Source of the DNA: Candidatus Moraniibacteriota bacterium
GTDB lineage: Bacteria; Patescibacteriota; Minisyncoccia; Moranbacterales; UBA1568
Length of the DNA: 64,000 bases
Direction of reading: 5' to 3'
Assembly: GCA_016699425.1 (NCBI GenBank)
Contig: CP064975.1
Span: 451,212 to 515,211, forward strand
Every line of letters starts with the position of its first letter. Position 1 is the first letter of the stretch. Of this stretch, positions 18,730 to 27,000 are shown piece after piece. Under the pieces are notes generated by a model that saw only the letters and a program-made list of their open reading frames with translations, had not been told where the DNA came from and made no database searches. The position numbers were made by a program, and so were the translations under genes.

Positions 18730-18745
18730 AGCTGGGGAGGAAGGG
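18730..18745. repeat. 16-bp direct repeat GCTGGGGAGGAAGGGA, identical to the tRNA-Gln 3' end (putative attL-type island junction)
   Basis: Exact 16/16 match to 23237-23252, which lies inside tRNA-Gln. Confidence 0.7.
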
Positions 18746-18939
18746 AATCTTACTCGCTTCGCTCTTTGAGAACCCCTCGGTTCTCAACACTCGCAGACTC
18801 GCTGCTCTCCGCCACGGGAAAACTCCCGTTTTCCCGACCCCTGCCTACCGGCAGGCAGGCCTTTCCCTGTTCGATCCCTTACCTTTCCATTATAAACAAA
18901 AACACCCACAAGGGGTATTTCCGTTTACAAAAGCTGAGG

Positions 18940-18965
18940 CTCTGGGACGAAGTTGGAAATTTTAT
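18940..18965. repeat. gene-terminal motif, copy 2 (CTCTGGGACGAAGTTGGAAATTTTAT)
   Basis: Overlaps the stop of the methyltransferase gene. Confidence 0.8.
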
Positions 18966-19711
18966 TTCGAATTTTGACGCTTAATAAATGAAAGCATATG
19001 ACATATTGGTTTTCCGCTTTTAGATGCTGATTTATTCATAATAGGTTTTTCTACGATTAGTTCAAAACCGGCTACGTTTGCTGATTCTCGAACTGATTCA
19101 ACTGGTCTCAGAATATCAAAAATAGTACTGGTAACACCGCCACCGAGGTTCCGTTCTATCTTTACTTCTATGGCTCCATCAGCTAATTGACGGACGATTT
19201 CAGCCATAACAATATGTTTTCCTTGACCGGTCTCAGAAGAGAGTTCATCGTCTTTATCTCCCATAACAAGAATAAGTTTTCCGTTATCCGCAAGAAGTTG
19301 ACTAATTTCTTGAAAAGCAACTTGCAGGTCTTCGATGTGTTCAATGACCATCACCGCAAAAGCCGTGTCGAACTTTTCTTTCGTTGTTTCCGAAAACTTT
19401 TTGAGCGTAGATAGATGTGAAGTTGCCCATGGATATTTTTCTGTACTTGTTTTTATATTTGCTTCTGATGGATCGATACCTTGAATATCGCTAGCCCCTT
19501 TCTCTTTGAGCCAGTTAAAAAGGTGACCTGTTCCTGATCCTATATCTAGTATTTTTTTATCTTTTATCGCATCAATTTCGACAAACGAATCCAAAGACTC
19601 TCGCAAGTATTTGCGAGAAGGTGAATCTTCCGCTCCACGCAAGTGCCACTGCGTCTCAGGAAGATCATATTGTTTCGGATCTGTTGCTTTTGGAAATTCT
19701 CCTATATTCAT
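18962..19711 (-). CDS. class I SAM-dependent methyltransferase
   Basis: Motif I ILDIGSGTGHL plus downstream acidic and aromatic motifs. Low GC. Confidence 0.75.
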   Translation of the reverse strand: MNIGEFPKATDPKQYDLPETQWHLRGAEDSPSRKYLRESLDSFVEIDAIKDKKILDIGSGTGHLFNWLKEKGASDIQGIDPSEANIKTSTEKYPWATSHLSTLKKFSETTKEKFDTAFAVMVIEHIEDLQVAFQEISQLLADNGKLILVMGDKDDELSSETGQGKHIVMAEIVRQLADGAIEVKIERNLGGGVTSTIFDILRPVESVRESANVAGFELIVEKPIMNKSASKSGKPICHMLSFIKRQNSK

Positions 19712-19728
19712 AATTTTATTTGTTGTCC

Positions 19729-19754
19729 CTATGGGACGAAGTTGGAACTTATTT
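19729..19754. repeat. gene-terminal motif, copy 3 (CTATGGGACGAAGTTGGAACTTATTT)
   Basis: Overlaps the stop of the 196-aa gene. Confidence 0.8.
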
Positions 19755-20339
19755 GATTTTCTCTACCTGACTCATAAGTACTCGATACATCAGGGATATA
19801 ATAAACAAAAAACCCTCTTTTTCCGGCATGAACTGATTAAGTCTAATTACAGTATCATCCTTATATTCTGCTGGGAAGTTTATACTCAAATACAGCATCG
19901 TCTTACTTTTTTCCTTCCACATCCGATATTTAATTTCCTTTTCACCCGCAAATCTGGATAAAAAATTATCGATAGATTTCCCAGGTTTTGACCAGTTTAT
20001 CATTTCTTTAGTAAATGCTATTTCATCCCAACTTTTATAAAATGGGAAATGTACAAGGATATTTCTTACAAAAAGTATATATTCTTTTGAAAGCTCTGCT
20101 TCTAGCGGTGGCCTGATTATTTTTAGATTATCCAGAAACCACCCCACTGGTTCGTACTCAAGAATTTCTGAATAGATAAGAATAGCATCTCGCATCCTGC
20201 TTAATCTGTAGTATGGATCTTTGCTCCAAAATGAATCTTTGCTGATTTCCTCGAAAATATCTAAGAAAGCATCATAAGACGACTGTAGAAAGAGCTCCTC
20301 TTTTTTACTAGGTCTTTGATTCATATTGATCCTATTCAT
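19749..20339 (-). CDS. hypothetical protein (island)
   Basis: 196 aa, low GC. Overlaps the upstream gene by 8 nt, implying an operon. Confidence 0.45.
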   Translation of the reverse strand: MNRINMNQRPSKKEELFLQSSYDAFLDIFEEISKDSFWSKDPYYRLSRMRDAILIYSEILEYEPVGWFLDNLKIIRPPLEAELSKEYILFVRNILVHFPFYKSWDEIAFTKEMINWSKPGKSIDNFLSRFAGEKEIKYRMWKEKSKTMLYLSINFPAEYKDDTVIRLNQFMPEKEGFLFIISLMYRVLMSQVEKIK

Positions 20340-21618
20340 ACATCTCTAAATATGGCTTCACCCAGTCTTTCCCGTACACTTCTTCAACAAGTTTTAAATG
20401 TTGCGGTGTCATTTTAGCCTCTATCGAATCAAGGTAACCAAAAATGTCTTCTTTATCGGCAAGTGAAAGAATTTTTGTGTCATACTTAGCTATTTTTCTC
20501 TGAACATCACCAAAGCTAAGGAGACCAGCCATTTCCCTGTCCACAAGCATCGCATCCACATAAGGTAATAGTGTAGAAATCATTTCCACATCACTAGCCA
20601 TACCCCTGTTTGGCGGTAACTTTCGTCCTCCATGCGCAGCCTGATGGGCAATTGCTGCCCACAAAGATGCAGCAATTTCATTAAATGGAATATCTAACAT
20701 TTCTTCTGAGGAAAGAAAGTTTACTACTGCCATAAATTTTTCGTGTCTATCTTTTCCCGGAGCAAATGTTATCAAACTATGGACCAAAACCTGTTCATCC
20801 CAGAACTCAAAAAAAGTTGATGGATCAAATGCTGATGTGCCATTTTCTATGGCTTGTCCGTAGTTTACTAAAGCCTGAGCATACCTCTGTGACATTGCTT
20901 TTCCCCATGCCAGTCCCTCTTCCTTGAACCAATCAGGGAAAGCCATACCCTTTTCTTTTTGCCACCTCTCGAAAGTTGCTTTTAGGGAATCAGCAATCCT
21001 TTCTCTTGCGTTTCTCTCGGCCTCCACATCTTTCGGATCTACTTTAGAGTCAACTGTCACATAGATTCTGCCTCCCCAGCTCCCATGGCTGTTCTCTAAA
21101 ACATCATCTTTTGTTATTTCAGTATCTTTCTCGCCCCCTAATTTTCGAAACTTCGATGCAACTTGAAACCTTCTAATTGTAGGTGCATCTAAAAATGTTG
21201 TCCCACCAGAAAAGTGATCATACATTTTTTTCAAGGGTGCATATTTGCCTAATTTTGATTCAGTTCTGTGAAAAGTAGAATCAGGAATTTCAATTAATTG
21301 TAGTCTATGCAGTCTCTCAAGTTTTTCAAATAGCTTTAACCAAAACTTATCTACCTTTTCTGTTTTCCCAAGCTTCGCATTAAGCGCCAGCATCATATTG
21401 CTTATTGCAAATTGATCGAGATAGATGATGTGTTTTTCAAGTACAGGTAAATCAAACCTTTGGGAATACCAACACTTAGTGCATCGACGGGTATAGTTAT
21501 CATTGCCACCCGTCATAATTAAAACCCCAAAGTTTTTCGTTGAACACTTCGGACAAGTAATATAGGGCTCAGATATGAAAATTCGTGGATCAATGCTTAT
21601 AGCCGCTTCTTCTGCCAT
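20332..21618 (-). CDS. hypothetical protein with N-terminal zinc-ribbon (island)
   Basis: 428 aa. CPKCS...CTKCWY is a Cys4 ribbon. No other motif recognised. Low GC. Confidence 0.5.
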   Translation of the reverse strand: MAEEAAISIDPRIFISEPYITCPKCSTKNFGVLIMTGGNDNYTRRCTKCWYSQRFDLPVLEKHIIYLDQFAISNMMLALNAKLGKTEKVDKFWLKLFEKLERLHRLQLIEIPDSTFHRTESKLGKYAPLKKMYDHFSGGTTFLDAPTIRRFQVASKFRKLGGEKDTEITKDDVLENSHGSWGGRIYVTVDSKVDPKDVEAERNARERIADSLKATFERWQKEKGMAFPDWFKEEGLAWGKAMSQRYAQALVNYGQAIENGTSAFDPSTFFEFWDEQVLVHSLITFAPGKDRHEKFMAVVNFLSSEEMLDIPFNEIAASLWAAIAHQAAHGGRKLPPNRGMASDVEMISTLLPYVDAMLVDREMAGLLSFGDVQRKIAKYDTKILSLADKEDIFGYLDSIEAKMTPQHLKLVEEVYGKDWVKPYLEMYE

Positions 21619-22261
21619 AGCTCTAAATTTAAACTGTTGAAACTTATGTTAGACCTAAAAATGATAATAAACAAATGTCTCGCTTGTTGACATGGGACTT
21701 AAAGTGATGTAGGTTCTACTTGGAAACTTAAAAACCGAAATCCCGCAAATTATATTATTTTTTGCTGGCCACAAAGGGCGGATCAACTATACTAATAAGT
21801 CCCAAAGGAACAACCTATTCTAGGACCCGGGCAGCCCGATCCATTTCAACTCTACTTAAAGGCTCATATTACATATTCCATAGGGAACCTCATGCTGATT
21901 GAGCGCTCTGTGTGATTTTTTAAATCTATTTGATACTTAAGAAACCATCTTCAATTAGGGGTTGGTTTTTTCGTTTCCCAGAATTTTATTCTCTGGGGAA
22001 TGAAGCAAAGATTTATCAAAGAATTACGAGATCGGATAAAAGCGTATTCACAAACACGCTGTGCTTTGGCTATTTCCGATGATGAAGTAGAGCCAAAAAA
22101 GGATTTGTCAGTGCTATTGGTGAACGGAAAACAATTGTTCTGAAAAGGTTACTTTGGAACCTTGAAATCAAAGAGAAAGTTGTGGATACCGTCAGCTACA
22201 AAAAGCCTTACGGCATAACAAAAAAGCACCCAAAACGGGTGATTTTTCGGAAATGCTGAAC

Positions 22262-22287
22262 CTATTGGACGAAGTTGGAACTTATTT
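22262..22287. repeat. gene-terminal motif, copy 4 (CTATTGGACGAAGTTGGAACTTATTT)
   Basis: Sits 7 nt before the stop of the SET-domain gene. Confidence 0.8.
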
Positions 22288-22293
22288 ACTCGG

Positions 22294-23220
22294 CTAATCA
22301 AGCAAACTTTTAAGTTTATCGATAAAACCATTCTTTTTCATTTCTTCGAATAAAATCCAGTCAGCCGTATAGAGGAGATACTTTAATTTGTACTCTTTCG
22401 GGAGTTTCCGCCAGGGGAGAATATCGCCAAAACAATTTTTAGATCCACACAAACATTTGCCACCAGGTACCTGCCAATCGGAATTACAGAAGAGGCTATA
22501 GGAGAGAGTGAGTTGTTCGCCGGGCTCGATGTCTCTCATCGTGCAGACGGAAAACAAATCTTTTACGTAGCAGTTCGGTTCGCACGAATGATTTATTTTT
22601 ACTGCAATAGTATTGAACGCATTTCTATAAAAATACTTACTAAATGGGACGGCGTGATCCTTGGCAGTTTTGTGTGTCTTGGCGATGTCAGATTCTTTCT
22701 CCGCAAAAATGACCTCCCCGTCAATATAGGCGATACTGGTTTCCTTGGGAATAAATTCTTTTGCAAAAACACCCGAACCAAGTAAATCATCTACCTTTTT
22801 TATTTCCACCGCCTTACTATCCTGAAATGGGGATGATTGTGGTAGCTCATGCCAAGTAAATTCACTACATTCAAACTTTTTTGAAACGAAATCAATTATT
22901 TTGTTGGTATCAAAATCAGAACAAGTATAGATGTCTACCGTAAAGAAATTTGTATCATTCCAGACATAGGTACTTACTTCATTTTCGTTCCAAACGATGA
23001 ATCCATCATAGGAAGAATTCTCTTCTACTTTCTTGTTGAAAGCATAATCAAAAACAAAAGGACCTCGTAGTCCTTTGATGATATTATCAGGGTCTTTAAT
23101 CTGCTCGGTGAAATCTAAAAGAAAATTATAAAGAAAATCTAAGCTCGTAATTTTGGCTCCATACTTTCCTTCGATGATGAGCCTCTTTCTAAAAATTTCT
23201 GGAGCTATATTGTGATACAT
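22294..23220 (-). CDS. SET-domain protein (putative lysine methyltransferase)
   Basis: Start at the internal Met (MYHNIAPE). The listed ORF start at 23364 reads through the tRNA and is rejected. SET motifs INHSCEPNCYV and GEQLTLSY. Post-SET Cys cluster CLCGSKNC. Confidence 0.65.
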   Translation of the reverse strand: MYHNIAPEIFRKRLIIEGKYGAKITSLDFLYNFLLDFTEQIKDPDNIIKGLRGPFVFDYAFNKKVEENSSYDGFIVWNENEVSTYVWNDTNFFTVDIYTCSDFDTNKIIDFVSKKFECSEFTWHELPQSSPFQDSKAVEIKKVDDLLGSGVFAKEFIPKETSIAYIDGEVIFAEKESDIAKTHKTAKDHAVPFSKYFYRNAFNTIAVKINHSCEPNCYVKDLFSVCTMRDIEPGEQLTLSYSLFCNSDWQVPGGKCLCGSKNCFGDILPWRKLPKEYKLKYLLYTADWILFEEMKKNGFIDKLKSLLD

Positions 23221-23237
23221 AGAGGTAAAATGATTTG

Positions 23238-23309
23238 CTGGGGAGGAAGGGATCGAACCTTCGCATGGTGGGACCAGAACCCACTGCCTTACCGCTTGGC
23301 TACTCCCCA
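23238..23309 (-). tRNA. tRNA-Gln (anticodon CTG)
   Basis: The reverse complement folds as a cloverleaf. Acceptor stem TGGGGAG/CTCCCCA. D arm GCCAAGCGGTAAGGC, close to E. coli tRNA-Gln. Anticodon loop TT-CTG-GT. T arm GAAGGTTCGATCCCTTC. Confidence 0.8.
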
Positions 23310-23320
23310 ATGTTAGGTGC

Positions 23321-23563
23321 TTAGTTGTTCTCTTGAAACTGTCTCTGTATCGCTCGTCGTCCACTTCGCGACTTCAAGAATAGTTCTCTTTTTCTGGCTT
23401 CAATGAGATTATCATACTCTTCGCTATACGCAAGGATGAAGGGACGGCGATTTTTTGTAGAAATGTTTTTGCCAGCATTATGCTCGTCTAATCGGCGCTT
23501 TAGGTCGGTTGTGGATCCAACGTATGTACGATGATCTTTCTGACTGAGCAATATTATAGACAT
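23321..23563 (-). CDS. GIY-YIG nuclease superfamily protein (small, UPF0213-like)
   Basis: 80 aa. GIY-YIG core ...RTYVGSTTDLKRRLDEHN... Confidence 0.75.
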   Translation of the reverse strand: MSIILLSQKDHRTYVGSTTDLKRRLDEHNAGKNISTKNRRPFILAYSEEYDNLIEARKRELFLKSRSGRRAIQRQFQENN

Positions 23564-23617
23564 GTCCTTTCATAGGGCCCCTGCCTTATCCGTCTTCATT
23601 GCATTCAGCCGAGATAA

Positions 23618-23668
23618 ACCGCTTGGCTTGCCTCGGCTCACCCTAGGGTGAGACGGGCTACTCCCCAA
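23618..23668 (-). pseudogene. partial duplicate of the tRNA-Gln 5' region, interrupted by a 29-nt palindromic insert
   Basis: ACCGCTTGGCT, then a 29-nt insert (TGCCTCGGCTCACCCTAGGGTGAGACGGG), then CTACTCCCCAA. The two flanks match tRNA positions 23291-23310. Confidence 0.45.
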
Positions 23669-23833
23669 TAGCTTCGAATCAAGAATAAGGAATCAAAAAT
23701 CATGAGCTCGGCATCATGATTCTACAGCCATGAGACCCCCTTTCCTCATTCGAACTTCTGTTCAAAAAGACTCCCCTATCCTAGCGGAAAATGATATCCG
23801 AATCAAGTCGGCAGACCGCAAAAACGATAGGCT

Positions 23834-24748
23834 CTACGTCTTCAGGTAACGGTGAATCGCGATGAAGCTCGAAATGACCCCGAGGAAAACACCGAGGCAG
23901 ATGGTTGCGACCGAGAGGGTTGGGAGATAAGCGAGGAAGACCTGGAAAATATTGCCTTGAGGAAAGGCACCCTGGGTGAAACCGGCCAAGCCATACGAGG
24001 CCGAAGCCACGAGGGCTACCGACACGACTCCCGCGAACAGTCCATAGAGGATACCCTCAAAGATGTACGGCATCCGCACATACAGGTTGGAGGCACCGAC
24101 GAGACGCATGATTTCGAACTCTTGGCGGTGAGAGTAAATCGTGATCCGGATCGTATTGAAGGTGATGAGAACCGCGATCAGTCCGAAGGCGCTCCCAAGC
24201 GCGATCCCAAACTTGCGAGCAGCTTGTCCGATAGCGTTCAAGCGCTCGAAAATCCTCCGGTTCTTTTCGAAATTAATCCGGTTAATATCCGCCTGATACG
24301 GAGAGGTTTCGAGAAAGGTCGCGATTTTCTCATAATCAGCTTGGTTTTTGGCTCGGATGACGAGTGATGCGAGCAGCGGGTTCTCCCCGATTTCGTCGAT
24401 CGCTTGGCGGATAACGGGGTCAGCGCCATTGTTGGCGAGGAAGTCTTCGAGCGCCCGTTCGCGAGAGACATACTCAATCGAGGCAATCTCACGCGCCCGT
24501 TCCAGATACTGCTTCATTTCGACCATGCGTTCTTCGGTGACATCCGGATTGAACGAGACAGTGATACTGATCCGATTCTCAAGATTGTTCACGATGAGCC
24601 GCGTACCGATCGTGATCAGACCAGCAAAACTAATGATGAAGAGTGAAAGCGAGAGAATCGTAATCGTCGCAAAAGACAGCCAACCATTGCGCCGGAAATT
24701 CGTCAGTCCCTCTCGAAAGGTGCGCCAGAGTTTCAGTGTCCGTTGCAT
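23834..24748 (-). CDS. ftsX: cell division permease FtsX
   Basis: Four-TM FtsX-like topology with a periplasmic loop. Immediately downstream of ftsE. Confidence 0.8.
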   Translation of the reverse strand: MQRTLKLWRTFREGLTNFRRNGWLSFATITILSLSLFIISFAGLITIGTRLIVNNLENRISITVSFNPDVTEERMVEMKQYLERAREIASIEYVSRERALEDFLANNGADPVIRQAIDEIGENPLLASLVIRAKNQADYEKIATFLETSPYQADINRINFEKNRRIFERLNAIGQAARKFGIALGSAFGLIAVLITFNTIRITIYSHRQEFEIMRLVGASNLYVRMPYIFEGILYGLFAGVVSVALVASASYGLAGFTQGAFPQGNIFQVFLAYLPTLSVATICLGVFLGVISSFIAIHRYLKT

Positions 24749-24750
24749 AA

Positions 24751-25488
24751 TTAGAGTTTGATATTGTATTTCCCGCGCGCTTCATCGTGCCGGAGTCGCC
24801 CCTCGACGAGCGAGATGACGCGCTTGTTGAGTTGGTCGACGACTTCGTTCTTGTGAGTCGCGATGATGACGGTGGTACCGTACGAGTTGATCTCGAGCAA
24901 GAGATCAGTCACCTCACGGGTCGACACGGGATCCAGATTGCCGGTTGGTTCATCGGCACAGATAATCTGTGGGTGATGAATAAGGGCCCGAGCGATCGCG
25001 ACACGCTGCTGCTCCCCACCCGAAAGCTCACGTGGAAATTTGTGGCCCTTGTTCCCAAGGCCGACGATTTCGAGTAGCTCACTTACCTCCTCACGGATTT
25101 CTTTGGCGCTTCGGCCATCGACTTCGAGCGCATAGGCGATGTTCTCAAAGGCTGTTTTTTGCGGCAAAAGTTTGTAGTCCTGGAAAACGGTGCCGATATT
25201 GCGTCGGAAATACGGCAGATGCTTACGATTGATGTCTTTGATCGGTCGCCCTTTGAAGTACACGGTGCCATCGGTCGGTTCCGCTTCAGCATAGATGAGC
25301 TTCAGGAGGGTAGATTTCCCAGCGCCGCTCGAACCCACGAGTGAGATGAACTCGCCCGGAAACACCGTGAATGACACTCCGTACAGCGCATTGACGCCAC
25401 CAGGGTAATCCTTGGTCACATTCTCAAAAACAACTATCGGCTGTCCTTCAGTCTTGGGCATGGAGTTATTTTTTCTGTCTTTGCTCAT
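24751..25488 (-). CDS. ftsE: cell division ATP-binding protein FtsE
   Basis: Walker [18 protein letters not shown] signature and Walker B. An alternative start at 25461 (MPKTEGQ) is possible. Confidence 0.8.
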
Positions 25489-26567
25489 ATTGTAGCTCAC
25501 TTTCGATGAAACTGTCCAAGTCACCATCGAGTACGGCCTGGGTATTGCTCGTCTCAGTGTCGGTCCGATGATCCTTCACCAGCGTATACGGATGGAGGAC
25601 ATAAGATCGGATTTGGTTACCAAAGCCGGCAGACTTGAATTCACCCCGAATCGCTGCCTTACGCTCCTCCTCATCATTTAGACGTTTCTGGAGTAGTTTC
25701 GATTTGAGGAGCTTCATTGCCTGATCGCGATTCTGCAGTTGAGAGCGCTCGCTCTGGCACGCGACGACGATGCCACTCGGCAGATGGGTCAGTCGAACGG
25801 CGGATTCGGTCTTGTTCACGTGCTGCCCACCGGCTCCGGATGCACGCAATGTGTCGACGCGCAGTTCTTCGGGTTTGATCTCGATAGAGCGGTCGGTATC
25901 GGGTAGGACAGGCATGACTTCGACCGAGGCGAACGACGTCTGGCGGAGATTATTGGCATTGAAGGGTGAGAGGCGAACGAGCCGGTGCACCCCCATCTCA
26001 CCGCGCAGATACCCGTAGGCATAGCGTCCCCGGATCTCGACGGTGACGCTTTTCAGACCGGTTTCATTGCCACGGTTTTCATCGAGCACCGTCGAACGGA
26101 AACTGTGGCGCTCAGCATAGCGCAAATACATGCGGAGCAGCATCTCCGTCCAGTCCTGAGCTTCGGTCCCGCCAGCTCCGCTTCGGAGCGTCAGGATTGC
26201 GTCAGCGTGATCATAAACGCCACCGAGCAAGAGTTGGAACTCCCATTCACGGAGCTGTTCCCCGATCGCCTGGACGTCTTGTTCCAATGACTGAATGTCT
26301 TTCTCCTCAAGATCAGCCATGCCCGATAACTCAGCAGCATCTTGAAGTGAGCGAGAGAGAACTTCGAAACGGGCAATTTCCTGCTTCAAACCATCTAGTG
26401 TCTGCATCGTCGCGGCGGCCGCTTCGGGTGTATCCCAAAACCCCGGCTGTTCACTGACCGTTTGGAGTCGGGCGATTTCAGTCCGCTTTCCGTCCCAGTC
26501 AAAGATAGTCCCGCAGGCGGGCGTACTGGGTTTCAAGCAAGGCAATTTGTCGTTTCAGTTCATCCAT
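25466..26567 (-). CDS. prfB: peptide chain release factor 2, with programmed +1 ribosomal frameshift
   Basis: Frame-0 ORF MDELKRQIALLETQYARLRDYL ends at an in-frame TGA (26499-26501) inside CTT TGA C. The +1 frame continues DWDGKR... into the RF2 body (SGAGGQHVN). Confidence 0.85.
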
Positions 26568-26778
26568 AAAGTACACGCTTACATCAATTTCACTTTTATT
26601 TTACCATGTCAGCTTGATTCTTCTCAGATATTTGCTAGGATAAGAGGCGTTATTGCCAGCTTAGCGTTAGGCAGGTACCTGCCCGACACGTTTGACGAGC
26701 AAACGAGTCATGCGGACGGGGAGCGGCGCACTCGCTTGCCCCGTCACACTGATGTTGACAATAATGTTTAGAATTCTC

Positions 26779-26853
26779 TTGCCGATGTAGCTCAGTTGGT
26801 AGAGCGACGCACTCGTAACGCGTAGGTCACCAGTTCAATCCTGGTCATCGGCT
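26779..26853 (+). tRNA. tRNA-Thr (anticodon CGT)
   Basis: GCCGATGTAGCTCAGTTGGTAGAGC...CT-CGT-AA...GGTCACCAGTTCAATCCTGGTCATCGGC. Close to bacterial tRNA-Thr(CGU). Confidence 0.8.
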
Positions 26854-27000
26854 CCGATAAAAGTGTAACAGGGTAATCGCAGGTCTCCAGCTCCCTTCCT
26901 GCCTTGGGAGGGAATCCTCAGACGGTGGCTCAGTTGGTGGATTTAGCCGTCCGAAGCTTCTCTGAAGGTGTACAGATTCTCGAGAGCATGCGTCTGTTCA

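Follow-up and report, generated by a model that had tools for sequence, protein, structure and literature searches.

A GIY-YIG Nuclease Cassette Lodged between a tRNA-Gln Gene and Its Promoter Belongs to a Recurrent tRNA-Nested Family

Organization of the tRNA-Gln Locus

The window, a 64-kb stretch of DNA, contains an intact tRNA-Gln(CUG) gene at 23237..23309 (minus strand), which is identified by both ARAGORN and Rfam. Read in the direction of transcription, the order of elements is the native tRNA promoter, a leader, a partial copy of the tRNA that we refer to as the decoy, a nuclease gene, and the intact tRNA-Gln, all on the minus strand. The decoy and the gene for an 80-residue GIY-YIG nuclease make up a selfish-looking cassette that sits between the promoter of the tRNA-Gln and its mature 5′ end. 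The promoter-like region (23764..23807) consists of TTGATT, 17 nt, TAGGAT, and then GGGGAGTCTTTTT, as evidenced by alignment with the empty sites L112 and L114; in such cassette-free relatives, the mature tRNA begins directly after this region. A promoter and terminator scan of the locus with a consensus scanner returned no match. Because the promoter lies below the threshold of the scanner, it is assigned by homology to the empty sites only. The leader of ∼95 nt that connects the promoter to the decoy (23670..23763) is specific to the species that comprises the window, L001, and L002, and the sequences found upstream in L003, L033, and L034 do not resemble it. Downstream of the decoy, the nuclease ORF (23321..23563), which is of the UPF0213 type and 80 aa long as it stands, is followed by a spacer of 11 nt between its stop codon and the tRNA (23310..23320). 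The insertion measures 454 nt (∼0.45 kb), and the GIY-YIG gene is the only substantial ORF within it.

The Decoy and Its Hairpins

The decoy is composed of three collinear pieces of the tRNA-Gln 5′ half, with two GC-rich, mutually pairing inserts between them. Piece 1 (23656..23669, minus strand) is a 14-nt exact direct repeat, GGCTACTCCCCAAT, that copies nt −2 to 12 of tRNA-Gln (ATTGGGGAGTAGCC), and piece 2 (23618..23628, minus strand) is an 11-nt exact direct repeat, ACCGCTTGGCT, of nt 9–19 in the D-arm (AGCCAAGCGGT). Piece 3 (23576..23588, minus strand), TAAGGCAGGGGCC, corresponds to nt 19–31 of a tRNA-Gln(UUG)-type gene; within it, CCcCTGCCTTA at 23578-23588 agrees with the neighboring tRNA at 10/11 positions. 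Jointly, the three pieces span nt −2 to ∼31 of the tRNA. The individual matches are short, as would be expected if the similarity stemmed from chance or an assembly artifact, an explanation to which we attach next to no weight. Indeed, when the 200 nt upstream of the ORF were shuffled (n = 20,000), a match of ≥10 nt was obtained 127 times and one of ≥14 nt in 0/20,000 cases, which refutes it, and the same structure is seen in the independent assemblies L001 and L002 and at dozens of other loci. The second copy of the tRNA 5′ sequence, which an earlier, sequence-only reading of this DNA had pointed out, is therefore borne out.

Insert A (23629..23655, minus strand) separates pieces 1 and 2 and contains a palindrome, CTCACCCTAGGGTGAG, a conserved GCCGAGGC motif, and CCGTCT, the 5′ strand of an outer helix. 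Insert B (23589..23617, minus strand; 29 nt) contributes CTCGGC and AGACGG, which pair with GCCGAG and CCGTCT of insert A. The sequence-only reading had described one nearly palindromic insert of 29 nt. Its palindrome stands and is in fact perfect over 16 nt (23637-23652), but the length of that insert is 27 nt, or 31 nt with an ambiguous AGCC included, and the second insert and third decoy piece had been missed. Folding of the decoy region, which had been suggested as a check, gives a three-way junction in which inserts A and B pair (−42.2 kcal/mol, z = −2.2). The junction has a consensus structure across four lineages with 3 compensatory pairs, and the hairpin pairing is kept despite changes on both sides in L003, L033, and L034. 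These three loci, at tRNA-Gln(UUG), hold the nearest relatives of the cassette.

From nt 27 on, the tail of the decoy shares a 13-nt identical run (13/13) with the tRNA-Gln(UUG) of L003, L033, and L034, as compared to an 8-nt run with the adjacent CUG gene. Since the tail is of the UUG type, the decoy probably arrived with the cassette and was not duplicated from the neighboring gene, judging from these alignments. The earlier notion that the locus holds a copy of its own tRNA is not strictly correct, since pieces 1 and 2 are exact but the match to the neighboring gene gives way from nt 27 on; likewise, the idea that the insertion duplicated part of the tRNA is right about the presence of a partial copy, which is, however, probably imported. 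For the same reason, we reject a simple in situ duplication of the target at this locus; elsewhere, it may have taken place. Finally, AAGG in piece 3 may act as the Shine–Dalgarno sequence for an ancestral ATG start codon at 23573-23571.

With Rfam, the tRNA alone was matched within 22500–24500 at E up to 10, nothing beyond tRNA and tmRNA was found in 20 loci at gathering thresholds, and the 3′ module described below had no match at E up to 1. On this basis, readings of the cassette as a group I intron, riboswitch, or known sRNA were dropped. Nor is a group I or group II intron indicated, as no ribozyme core was detected (Rfam, E up to 10) and the tRNA is contiguous. In the rest of the window, neither the hairpin nor the GCCGAGGC motif shows enrichment, and a genome-wide REP-like repeat was rejected on this ground.

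A Minimal GIY-YIG Nuclease

The 80-aa ORF matches the Pfam GIY-YIG family (PF01541) with E = 1.7e-14 and 54.3 bits, compared to a cut-off of 22.6, in agreement with the gene assignment made from sequence for 23321-23563 next to the tRNA-Gln. In the family alignment, Y14, G16, R24, H28, and E60 are invariant. Compared with L001 and L002, the window ORF has one additional A at 23555, which puts the ancestral start at 23573 out of frame. The N-terminal MKGHVY is thereby lost, and with it the Tyr of the GIY motif; the L001 and L002 nucleases retain this first Tyr. A PDB profile search retrieves the UPF0213 proteins 1ywl (EF2693, 1.2e-09) and 1zg2 (BH0048, 1.3e-09), with SLX1 as a weaker match. The AlphaFold model of the nuclease has a pLDDT of 93, and its top folds are UPF0213 BH0048, the catalytic domain of I-TevI, and the N-terminal domain of UvrC, though for a domain of this size the Foldseek E-values are weak.

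The nuclease is a single domain of the stand-alone UPF0213/YhbQ-like type, and its relatives are 76–133 aa long. A DNA-binding module that could read a long target is absent, as Pfam covers residues 4–69 of 80 and the model has no extra domain. The family profile encompasses 4,230 clusters at 50% identity (E up to 1e-10). The GC content of the ORF is 41.6%, as compared to 52% in the window. Among the nearest proteins, P0001 and P0007 have no match in PHROG and P0012 has only a weak N-terminal one, and IMG/VR holds no relatives of the nuclease. A phage origin was rejected because the nearest proteins lack a PHROG family and an IMG/VR relative. With the NCBIfam model for group I intron endonucleases, the score is 25–27 bits, compared to a cut-off of 56.

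Empty Sites, Recent Spread, and Decay

The cassette is present in three strains, namely, those of the window, L001 (ERZ24875783), and L002, which differ little in its sequence. Aligning related tRNA-Gln loci, as the sequence-only reading had advised, uncovered empty sites in L112–L115. In these relatives, which have 78–87% FtsX identity, the promoter leads straight into tRNA-Gln, and the ORF, decoy, and hairpin are missing. The occupied and empty loci amount to a presence/absence polymorphism at a fixed site and show that the cassette is an insertion relative to close relatives. The description of the locus as the scar of an insertion is upheld in this respect. The scar is not an accidental one, however, as the hairpin-split partial copy is conserved and integral at many tRNAs. 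The tRNA-Gln of L112 is identical to that of the window, and a reading in which the cassette brings its own tRNA is accordingly disfavored here, the intact tRNA being the same as the resident gene of an empty-site relative.

Between the window and L002, the ORF has a pS of 0.02 and a pN of 0.022 (pN/pS ∼1), as compared to a pS of 0.465 and a pN of 0.054 in the adjacent ftsX. Identity between the two is 95–99% from 23899 to the end of the tRNA (23237) and 66–80% in the adjoining ftsX; the profile is mosaic elsewhere too, which counts against the homing-like reading developed below. Signs of decay are found in the frameshift of the window and in a 29-nt deletion that removes decoy piece 1 in L001. 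As shown by these sequence comparisons, the cassette is recent, neutrally evolving, and decaying in the species of the window. The low pS of the ORF, the bounded tract of high identity, the frameshift and deletion, and the UUG-type decoy tail together are evidence of lateral spread and of a cycle of gain and decay like that of homing endonuclease genes.

Cassettes at Other tRNA and tmRNA Genes

Related nucleases are encoded at 90 distinct loci, at which we scored any tRNA or tmRNA within 400 nt. One is found on the same strand at 68/90 loci and on the opposite strand at 0, against a background of 0.13 tRNA per kb. The adjacency of GIY-YIG genes of this family to tRNAs, which the sequence-only reading had proposed to test, is therefore recurrent, with all cases co-oriented. 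The targets are the genes for Gln, Gly, Leu, Cys, Ser, Tyr, Met, Arg, Ala, Lys, Glu, and Pro tRNAs and tmRNA. The ORF is usually flanked, on the side away from the tRNA, by a partial copy of the near end of the same tRNA that a hairpin interrupts, and this holds across at least a dozen tRNA identities. The 5′-type cassette runs from a copy of tRNA nt 1 to ∼18 through a hairpin, a copy of nt 19 to 26–46, and the ORF to the intact tRNA, and the 3′-type is its mirror image with the same family of hairpins. The 3′ end of the ORF abuts or overlaps the tRNA 5′ end, and both tandem units and remnant forms occur. At L004, the decoy begins ∼10 nt past a TTGAAA-17-TAGAAT promoter. Cassettes that lack an ORF are also seen, one at tRNA-Lys and one at tRNA-Thr within the window. 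The cassettes are chromosomal and mostly in Patescibacteria, their spread over phyla resting on MAG labels. These tRNA-hugging cassettes form a very widespread family. A limited full-text literature search, with most subscription journals outside its reach, found no description of tRNA-linked UPF0213-type GIY-YIG cassettes.

The hairpins of a 5′-type cassette at tRNA-Leu(UAA), a 3′-type cassette at tRNA-Leu(UAG), and the ORF-less cassette at tRNA-Lys are alike in 37–38/38 nt, and the ORFs are 54–59% identical at the amino acid level. This similarity would be expected of a hairpin-ended, transposon-like element, in which the conserved GC-rich hairpin is a cis site that is cut as a DNA stem-loop or cruciform by an SLX1-like structure-specific nuclease, target tRNA segments are copied upon insertion, ORF-bearing forms are autonomous, and ORF-less ones are mobilized in trans. 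In line with such an element, the hairpin accompanies the partial copy on either side of the ORF, an ORF-less cassette occurs at tRNA-Thr in the window, SLX1 is among the nearest structural relatives, the nuclease has no DNA-binding domain, and at most loci the partial copies agree with their own tRNA at lineage-specific positions. However, the decoy tail in the window is of the donor (UUG) type rather than a copy of the local target, the hairpin is not scattered through the rest of the 64-kb window, and gene conversion between cassettes of one genome could also account for the hairpin similarity. Moreover, we know of no mechanism by which a GIY-YIG nuclease alone transposes DNA. We regard a transposon-like element as unlikely, though it merits serious attention.

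The clades of the ORF follow tRNA identity at only 50–76% aa identity. That they stay with one tRNA identity could also suggest a domesticated arrangement, in which the nuclease gene belongs to the host and shares a transcript with the tRNA, and the hairpins and tRNA-like leader form an RNA element that controls the processing, stability, or translation of the nuclease mRNA. The constant co-orientation of the ORF with the tRNA, a decoy at promoter +1, the copied D-stem AAGG 5–10 nt ahead of the start codon, and the conservation of the three-way junction with its 3 compensatory pairs can all be read in this way. Such control of an mRNA is difficult to reconcile with a hairpin that follows the ORF in 3′-type cassettes, and the ORF-less cassettes, the empty sites in close relatives, a pN/pS of ∼1 together with the frameshift and the 29-nt deletion seen when the three strains are compared, and the lack of a match to any Rfam family also speak against it. 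On balance, domestication seems to us quite improbable.

At L051, the decoy matches a downstream pseudo-tRNA and not the tRNA of its own locus. L051 and L049 do fit a cassette that brings its own tRNA.

A Proposed Homing-like Cassette Riding a tRNA Promoter

The reading that we favor is a compact, mobile, homing-like GIY-YIG cassette lodged in the tRNA-Gln transcription unit. Its descriptive part, a recurrent, inserted, tRNA-nested GIY-YIG cassette, we hold with high confidence; for the whole statement, including the mechanism, we put the odds at about even. We infer the role of the nuclease as mobilizing agent and the mechanism of transfer. The tRNA promoter would transcribe the cassette, and RNase P would release the tRNA. 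The nuclease would cut cassette-free tRNA genes, and the break would be mended from a cassette-bearing copy, with the decoy and the real tRNA as homology arms. Because tRNA sequence is conserved, such arms are proposed to be usable in any genome. Repair would leave the cassette copied and a working tRNA retained. The hairpin that splits the decoy would have three consequences: the decoy would escape cutting itself, recombination with the real gene and the resulting loss of the ORF would be prevented, and no competing tRNA half would fold from the decoy. Saccharibacteria are reported to be naturally competent (10.1101/2023.05.02.539146).

Several observations sit uneasily with the homing-like reading. 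The nuclease is an ∼80-aa catalytic domain only, without a DNA-binding domain for a long site, and a target located within the tRNA would persist in the regenerated gene. ORF clades that track tRNA identity also fit long vertical residence. The 95-nt leader and a junction at tRNA nt 1–2 are a poor fit to a simple crossover within the decoy, and the match of the L051 decoy to a pseudo-tRNA is not readily accommodated. Finally, cassettes at different tRNAs agree more closely in the hairpin (37/38 nt) than in the ORF (54–59% aa). This conservation, along with the ORF-less cassettes, suggests that the hairpin and not the tRNA sequence may be the cis-acting site.

A more far-reaching possibility, which we put forward tentatively and would not yet bet on, is that the cassettes represent a new class of mobile element that consists of a minimal SLX1/UPF0213-like GIY-YIG nuclease, a GC-rich hairpin as cis site, and tRNA-derived arms. 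Such an element would colonize either end of tRNA and tmRNA genes, always leaving one intact copy, and would exist in autonomous and hairpin-only forms; it would be pervasive in Patescibacteria, reshaping tRNA loci and riding tRNA promoters.

Relation to Known Systems

The closest solved structures to the cassette nuclease are those of UPF0213/YhbQ (COG2827) and SLX1, which share its fold. SLX1 acts with SLX4 on branched DNA. To our knowledge, neither tRNA linkage nor a decoy has been noted for UPF0213/YhbQ or SLX1 proteins, and the literature search found none. In group I introns of tRNA genes with I-TevI-type GIY-YIG homing endonucleases, the same catalytic fold is found, and a selfish nuclease gene likewise coexists with a host RNA gene that is kept functional. 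Unlike these introns, the cassette has no ribozyme (Rfam), its tRNA is uninterrupted, and harm is avoided by duplication rather than splicing. The REP/RAYT and IS200/IS605 systems resemble the cassettes in having conserved GC-rich hairpins as likely cis sites and nonautonomous, hairpin-only copies. They use HUH (Y1) transposases, and their hairpins occur genome-wide, whereas those of the cassettes are found only inside partial tRNA copies.

A precedent for the homing-like reading is the phage nuclease SegB (T4/T6), a free-standing GIY-YIG homing endonuclease encoded in a tRNA gene cluster. SegB is reported to cleave within tRNA genes and to accompany tRNAs in a range of phages, and tandem duplication of tRNA-segB units is attributed to it, by way of microhomology that the 5′ end of the tRNA shares with the 3′ end of segB (PMC13096335). 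SegB shares with the cassette a GIY-YIG gene that adjoins tRNA genes, a nuclease 3′ end that meets the tRNA 5′ end, and tandem units. In contrast to SegB, the cassette protein is ∼80 aa, comprises only a catalytic domain of the UPF0213 type, has no PHROG or IMG/VR relatives, and is chromosomal. A hairpin-interrupted decoy tRNA half is not mentioned for SegB in the passages of PMC13096335 that were consulted. In the rRNA genes of CPR bacteria, insertions with small GIY-YIG ORFs have been reported that belong to neither the group I nor the group II class of introns (PMC11270868). By description, these are like the cassette in placing a small GIY-YIG ORF in a stable-RNA gene of the same radiation; unlike them, the cassette leaves the stable RNA gene intact beside the ORF.

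If correct, these proposals would provide a function and lifestyle for a large branch of UPF0213-type GIY-YIG proteins. They would also add a third way, besides self-splicing introns and the att duplication of integrases, for a selfish element to live inside an essential RNA gene without destroying its function, in which a working copy is kept and the spare is disabled by a hairpin. Many of the odd partial tRNA fragments and hairpins near tRNA genes of uncultivated bacteria, which confuse annotation, would be explained. Moreover, a minimal nuclease with a hairpin would constitute a compact system in which to look for structure- or sequence-directed DNA cutting.

The 3′ Side of the tRNA

On this side, a low-GC island (18747-23236) separates the tRNA from a 3′ module that takes the form of a long, imperfect hairpin (18731..18890, minus strand). 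The T-arm of the tRNA recurs as its reverse complement in the 5′ arm of the module, nt ∼53–73 of the tRNA are copied in the 3′ arm, and 16 nt of the latter (18731-18746) repeat the tRNA 3′ end exactly. Integration into tRNA genes is a classic pattern. Tyrosine-integrase islands and prophages enter a tRNA gene, keep it functional by replacing what they displace with a copy, and have a partial tRNA repeat at their far end. Given the low-GC island and the 16-nt repeat across the tRNA from the cassette, the locus could accordingly be taken for an att scar left by a tRNA-targeting genomic island of the classical, integrase-mediated kind. We consider this highly improbable. Integrase islands have a 3′-end duplication, an integrase, a length of kilobases, and an uninterrupted repeat; the cassette has a duplicated 5′ half, GIY-YIG as its only enzyme, a length of ∼0.45 kb, and a repeat broken by conserved hairpins in two inserts. 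The same design with a GIY-YIG ORF is also present at >60 loci. Neither the 454-nt insertion nor the inspected island ORFs, three of which were scanned with Pfam and the others read only, revealed a recombinase gene, and a classical integrase scar was rejected on this ground and on that of the duplicated 5′ half. Furthermore, related loci contain the conserved 3′ hairpin module without any island; since the 16-nt repeat is part of this module, it need not mark island integration.

Of the three island ORFs compared with Pfam, two have no match and one contains SET and AdoMet_dc domains. The content 3′ of the tRNA differs between strains, and this variability, the low-GC island with its 16-nt repeat, and the polymorphism of the cassette support the earlier view of the tRNA-Gln locus as an integration hot spot.

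Results and Discussion

On the minus strand of the window, ftsX (23834-24748) is followed by a promoter-like stretch (TTGATT, 17 nt, TAGGAT; 23764-23807), a species-specific leader of ~95 nt (23670-23763), a broken copy of the tRNA-Gln 5' half (23576-23669), referred to here as the decoy, and an ORF for an 80-aa GIY-YIG protein (23321-23563). An 11-nt spacer separates the ORF from the intact tRNA-Gln(CUG) (23237-23309; Rfam 59.8 bits); with E-values up to 10 admitted, Rfam matches nothing else in 22500-24500. The sequence-only reading took this arrangement for the scar of an insertion, and comparison with relatives bears out the insertion. In four of them (L112-L115), whose FtsX is 78-87% identical to that of the window, the order is prfB-ftsE-ftsX, in some cases joined by an HD-domain gene, and the same promoter runs straight into tRNA-Gln. 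ORF, decoy and hairpin are all absent at these sites. Alignment with the empty sites places the break point at tRNA nt 1-2 and leaves 454 extra nt in the window (23310-23763). The intact tRNA-Gln is the resident gene, since it is identical to the tRNA at the empty site of L112. The cassette, decoy plus ORF, is therefore an insertion.

The same locus is present in two independent assemblies, an ENA contig (L001; ORF 97% identical) and a Candidatus Moraniibacteriota MAG (L002), in which the decoy is complete and the ORF, starting MKGHVY, is intact. L001 lacks 29 nt, and with them the acceptor copy and the palindrome. In the window, a frameshift caused by an additional A at 23555 forces the ORF to restart at 23563 and costs it the Tyr of the 'GIY' motif; the two strains therefore carry different lesions. 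Between the window and L002, pS is 0.02 and pN 0.022 for the ORF, versus 0.465 and 0.054 for the adjacent ftsX, and identity rises from 66-80% over 23900-24500 to 95-99% from 23899 through the tRNA end. This tract is supportive, not decisive, because the window/L002 profile is mosaic elsewhere too. The GC content of the ORF is 41.6%, versus 52% for the window. The cassette has spread recently and is decaying, and with pN/pS ~1 it is evolving neutrally in this species. Over 23237-26055 the comparison with L002 is strongly mosaic, with 100% identity at 25500-25699, which indicates frequent homologous recombination in the population.

The design is recurrent. Our searches yielded 30 loci in reference genomes and 80 in metagenomes. 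In 68 of 90 distinct ORF loci a tRNA or tmRNA lies ≤400 nt from the ORF, on the same strand in every case (68/68). Of the remaining 22 loci, at least 12 are truncated by contig ends; tRNA genes have a background density of 0.13 per kb. The expectation that GIY-YIG genes recurrently adjoin tRNAs is thereby confirmed, with ORF and tRNA co-oriented throughout. In cassettes on the 5' side, which occur at tRNAs for Gln, Ser, Tyr, Leu(UAA) and Met, a GC-rich hairpin separates copies of tRNA nt 1 to ~18 and nt 19 to 26-46; a few nt then precede the ORF, and the intact tRNA comes last. The partial copies track lineage-specific variants of their own tRNA, and the ORF stop codon often falls within the first 9-19 nt of the tRNA. 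The decoy is located at the promoter; in L004 it starts ~10 nt past TTGAAA-17-TAGAAT. At tRNA-Leu(UAG) the mirror image occurs on the 3' side, where the ORF starts 1-3 nt after the intact tRNA and is followed by a T-arm copy and, beyond a hairpin, by an acceptor 3' copy. Two complete cassettes stand in tandem in L032, multiple partial copies occur in L017, L090 and L093, and near-full pseudo-tRNAs disrupted by hairpins are seen in L049 and L051. The pseudo-tRNA-Gln of L051 (1029-1200) holds three tandem hairpins in its D-loop. The match of its 3' acceptor strand is to the decoy, which lies upstream of the ORF, and not to the intact tRNA between decoy and pseudo-tRNA.

In six loci (L018, L021, L023, L025, L026, L028) a conserved structured motif of ~110 nt, AACCACTC..GGTTYATGGCRCAGCCAT..GAGTGGTT..ATGCCCTGTACCGGA..GACTGGTACAGGGC, lies between the CCA end of a tmRNA or tRNA-Arg/Ala/Lys and the ORF of another GIY-YIG subfamily. 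The motif does not descend from the tRNA beside it, and it corresponds to no Rfam family. In L023 a second, different GIY-YIG ORF (MFYFYILKCKDGTLYCGSAKDL...; ~2740-2900) directly follows the first.

The second tRNA 5'-half copy seen in the sequence-only reading does exist, as three collinear pieces identified by a repeat finder on the minus strand: 23656-23669 (14 nt, exact), 23618-23628 (11 nt, exact) and 23578-23588 (10/11 nt), kept apart by a 27-nt and a 29-nt insert. The 14-nt match was reached in 0/20,000 shuffles. The palindrome is likewise real, yet it is not a sole insert; RNA folding makes it one arm of a three-way junction formed by mutual pairing of the two inserts (-42.2 kcal/mol, z = -2.2). 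Nor is the decoy simply a duplicate of the adjacent tRNA, because its tail is of the UUG type. Beyond the shared nt 19-26 it reads GGGCC, as in tRNA-Gln(UUG) of the nearest cassette relatives (L003, L033, L034), with a 13-nt identical run and 15/20 matches overall, versus an 8-nt run and 11/20 for tRNA-Gln(CUG). The decoy thus probably arrived together with the cassette. The ancestral start region CCCTATGAAAGG (23560-23588, minus strand) can be aligned to CCTTTGAAGCC, the region of the anticodon loop in tRNA-Gln(UUG), a weak hint that the decoy's TTG anticodon may have given rise to the ATG of the ORF.

The two-insert variant is common to the window, L003, L033 and L034, and has a consensus three-way junction with one hairpin preserved through both-side changes at three pairs. 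A large hairpin subfamily has common arms CCCGYCTCG...CGAGGCGGR, inserted at GG^TA (D-loop) or CC^TC (T-arm). ORF-less cassettes occur as well, one of them at tRNA-Lys in L075. Another, of the same design, precedes the window tRNA-Thr (26781-26855, plus strand), where the stretch 26646-26780 holds ~105 nt, absent from L112-L114, between the conserved promoter (26613-26645) and the tRNA. Within this stretch, nt 1-19 of tRNA-Thr are present as a degenerate copy and nt 22-35 as a copy matching at 13/14, along with a perfect palindrome, GGCAGGTACCTGCC, and additional hairpins. That the cassette is a domesticated leader is an idea weakened by these ORF-less forms, by the 3'-type cassettes, by the empty sites and by pN/pS ~1. 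One 38-nt hairpin is 37-38/38 identical in cassettes at Leu(UAA), Leu(UAG) and the ORF-less tRNA-Lys (L054 1437-1474, L094 1748-1785, L075 599-637), while the ORFs, where present, are only 54-59% identical. Conservation beyond that of the ORFs suggests that the cis site is the hairpin, and speaks for a transposon-like alternative, which we hold to be rather unlikely.

Homing-like copying is the most likely way in which the cassette works. The tRNA promoter would drive its expression, the nuclease would break cassette-free tRNA genes, and repair from an occupied copy, with decoy and real tRNA as arms, would copy the cassette and leave a working tRNA. The hairpin could keep the decoy from being a nuclease target, prevent ORF deletion through repeat recombination and prevent misfolding of the decoy with the real tRNA. 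The best precedent is SegB, a phage GIY-YIG enzyme that cuts inside tRNA genes and forms tandem tRNA-nuclease duplications via microhomology of the tRNA 5' end with segB's own 3' end (PMC13096335). Against homing, the GIY-YIG protein has no DNA-binding domain, any target internal to the tRNA would still be present in the restored tRNA, and ORF clades track tRNA identity at 50-76% amino acid identity; the near-identity of the 38-nt hairpin across cassettes fits homing poorly as well.

The protein is a GIY-YIG catalytic domain alone (Pfam E=1.7e-14), with Y, G, R, H and E invariant across the family, and its profile matches 4,230 clusters (E ≤ 1e-10). Among solved structures, the UPF0213 proteins 1ywl and 1zg2 are closest and SLX1 is more distant; the confident AlphaFold model (pLDDT 93) best matches UPF0213, the I-TevI catalytic domain and the UvrC N-terminal domain. 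It is not a phage protein family, as judged by searches of PHROG and IMG/VR. GIY-YIG ORFs have been noted in non-intron insertions of CPR rRNA genes (PMC11270868). Full-text literature of incomplete coverage yielded no account of tRNA-linked UPF0213-type GIY-YIG cassettes, and an earlier description is possible. We place the cassette, as a variant, with free-standing GIY-YIG homing genes and tRNA-targeting elements, with an appreciable chance that it forms a separate class.

Beyond the 3' end of tRNA-Gln lies a low-GC island (18747-23236; 38% GC vs 54% in the flanks). At its far end the 16 nt of tRNA positions 58-73 are exactly copied, and this copy is the 3' arm of an imperfect hairpin ~150-190 nt long. 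This module (18731-18890, minus strand) is conserved after tRNA-Gln in L033 (1850-1995), L034 (750-905) and L036 (1395-1565). Its 5' arm is the T-arm reverse complement, followed by inner GC hairpins and a 3' arm copying tRNA nt ~53-73, and it has no Rfam match. In the latter three loci the hairpin directly follows the tRNA and no island is present; in the window, therefore, the island separates the tRNA from a module that was already there. One island ORF (22294-23220) has SET-domain and AdoMet_dc-like matches in one protein, and two others (428 aa and 196 aa) have no Pfam match. No recombinase gene was seen in the Pfam scan of these three or on reading the remaining ORFs, among them that at 18962-19711 (249 aa). 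The L002 counterpart of the island is only ~800 nt. The 95-nt leader upstream of the decoy (23670-23763, minus strand) holds GAACAG..GAGGAAAGGGGGTC, resembling the module's 5' arm (complement of the tRNA 3' end), and a hairpin, ATCATGA-TGCCGAGC-TCATGAT, whose loop carries a GCCGAG motif.
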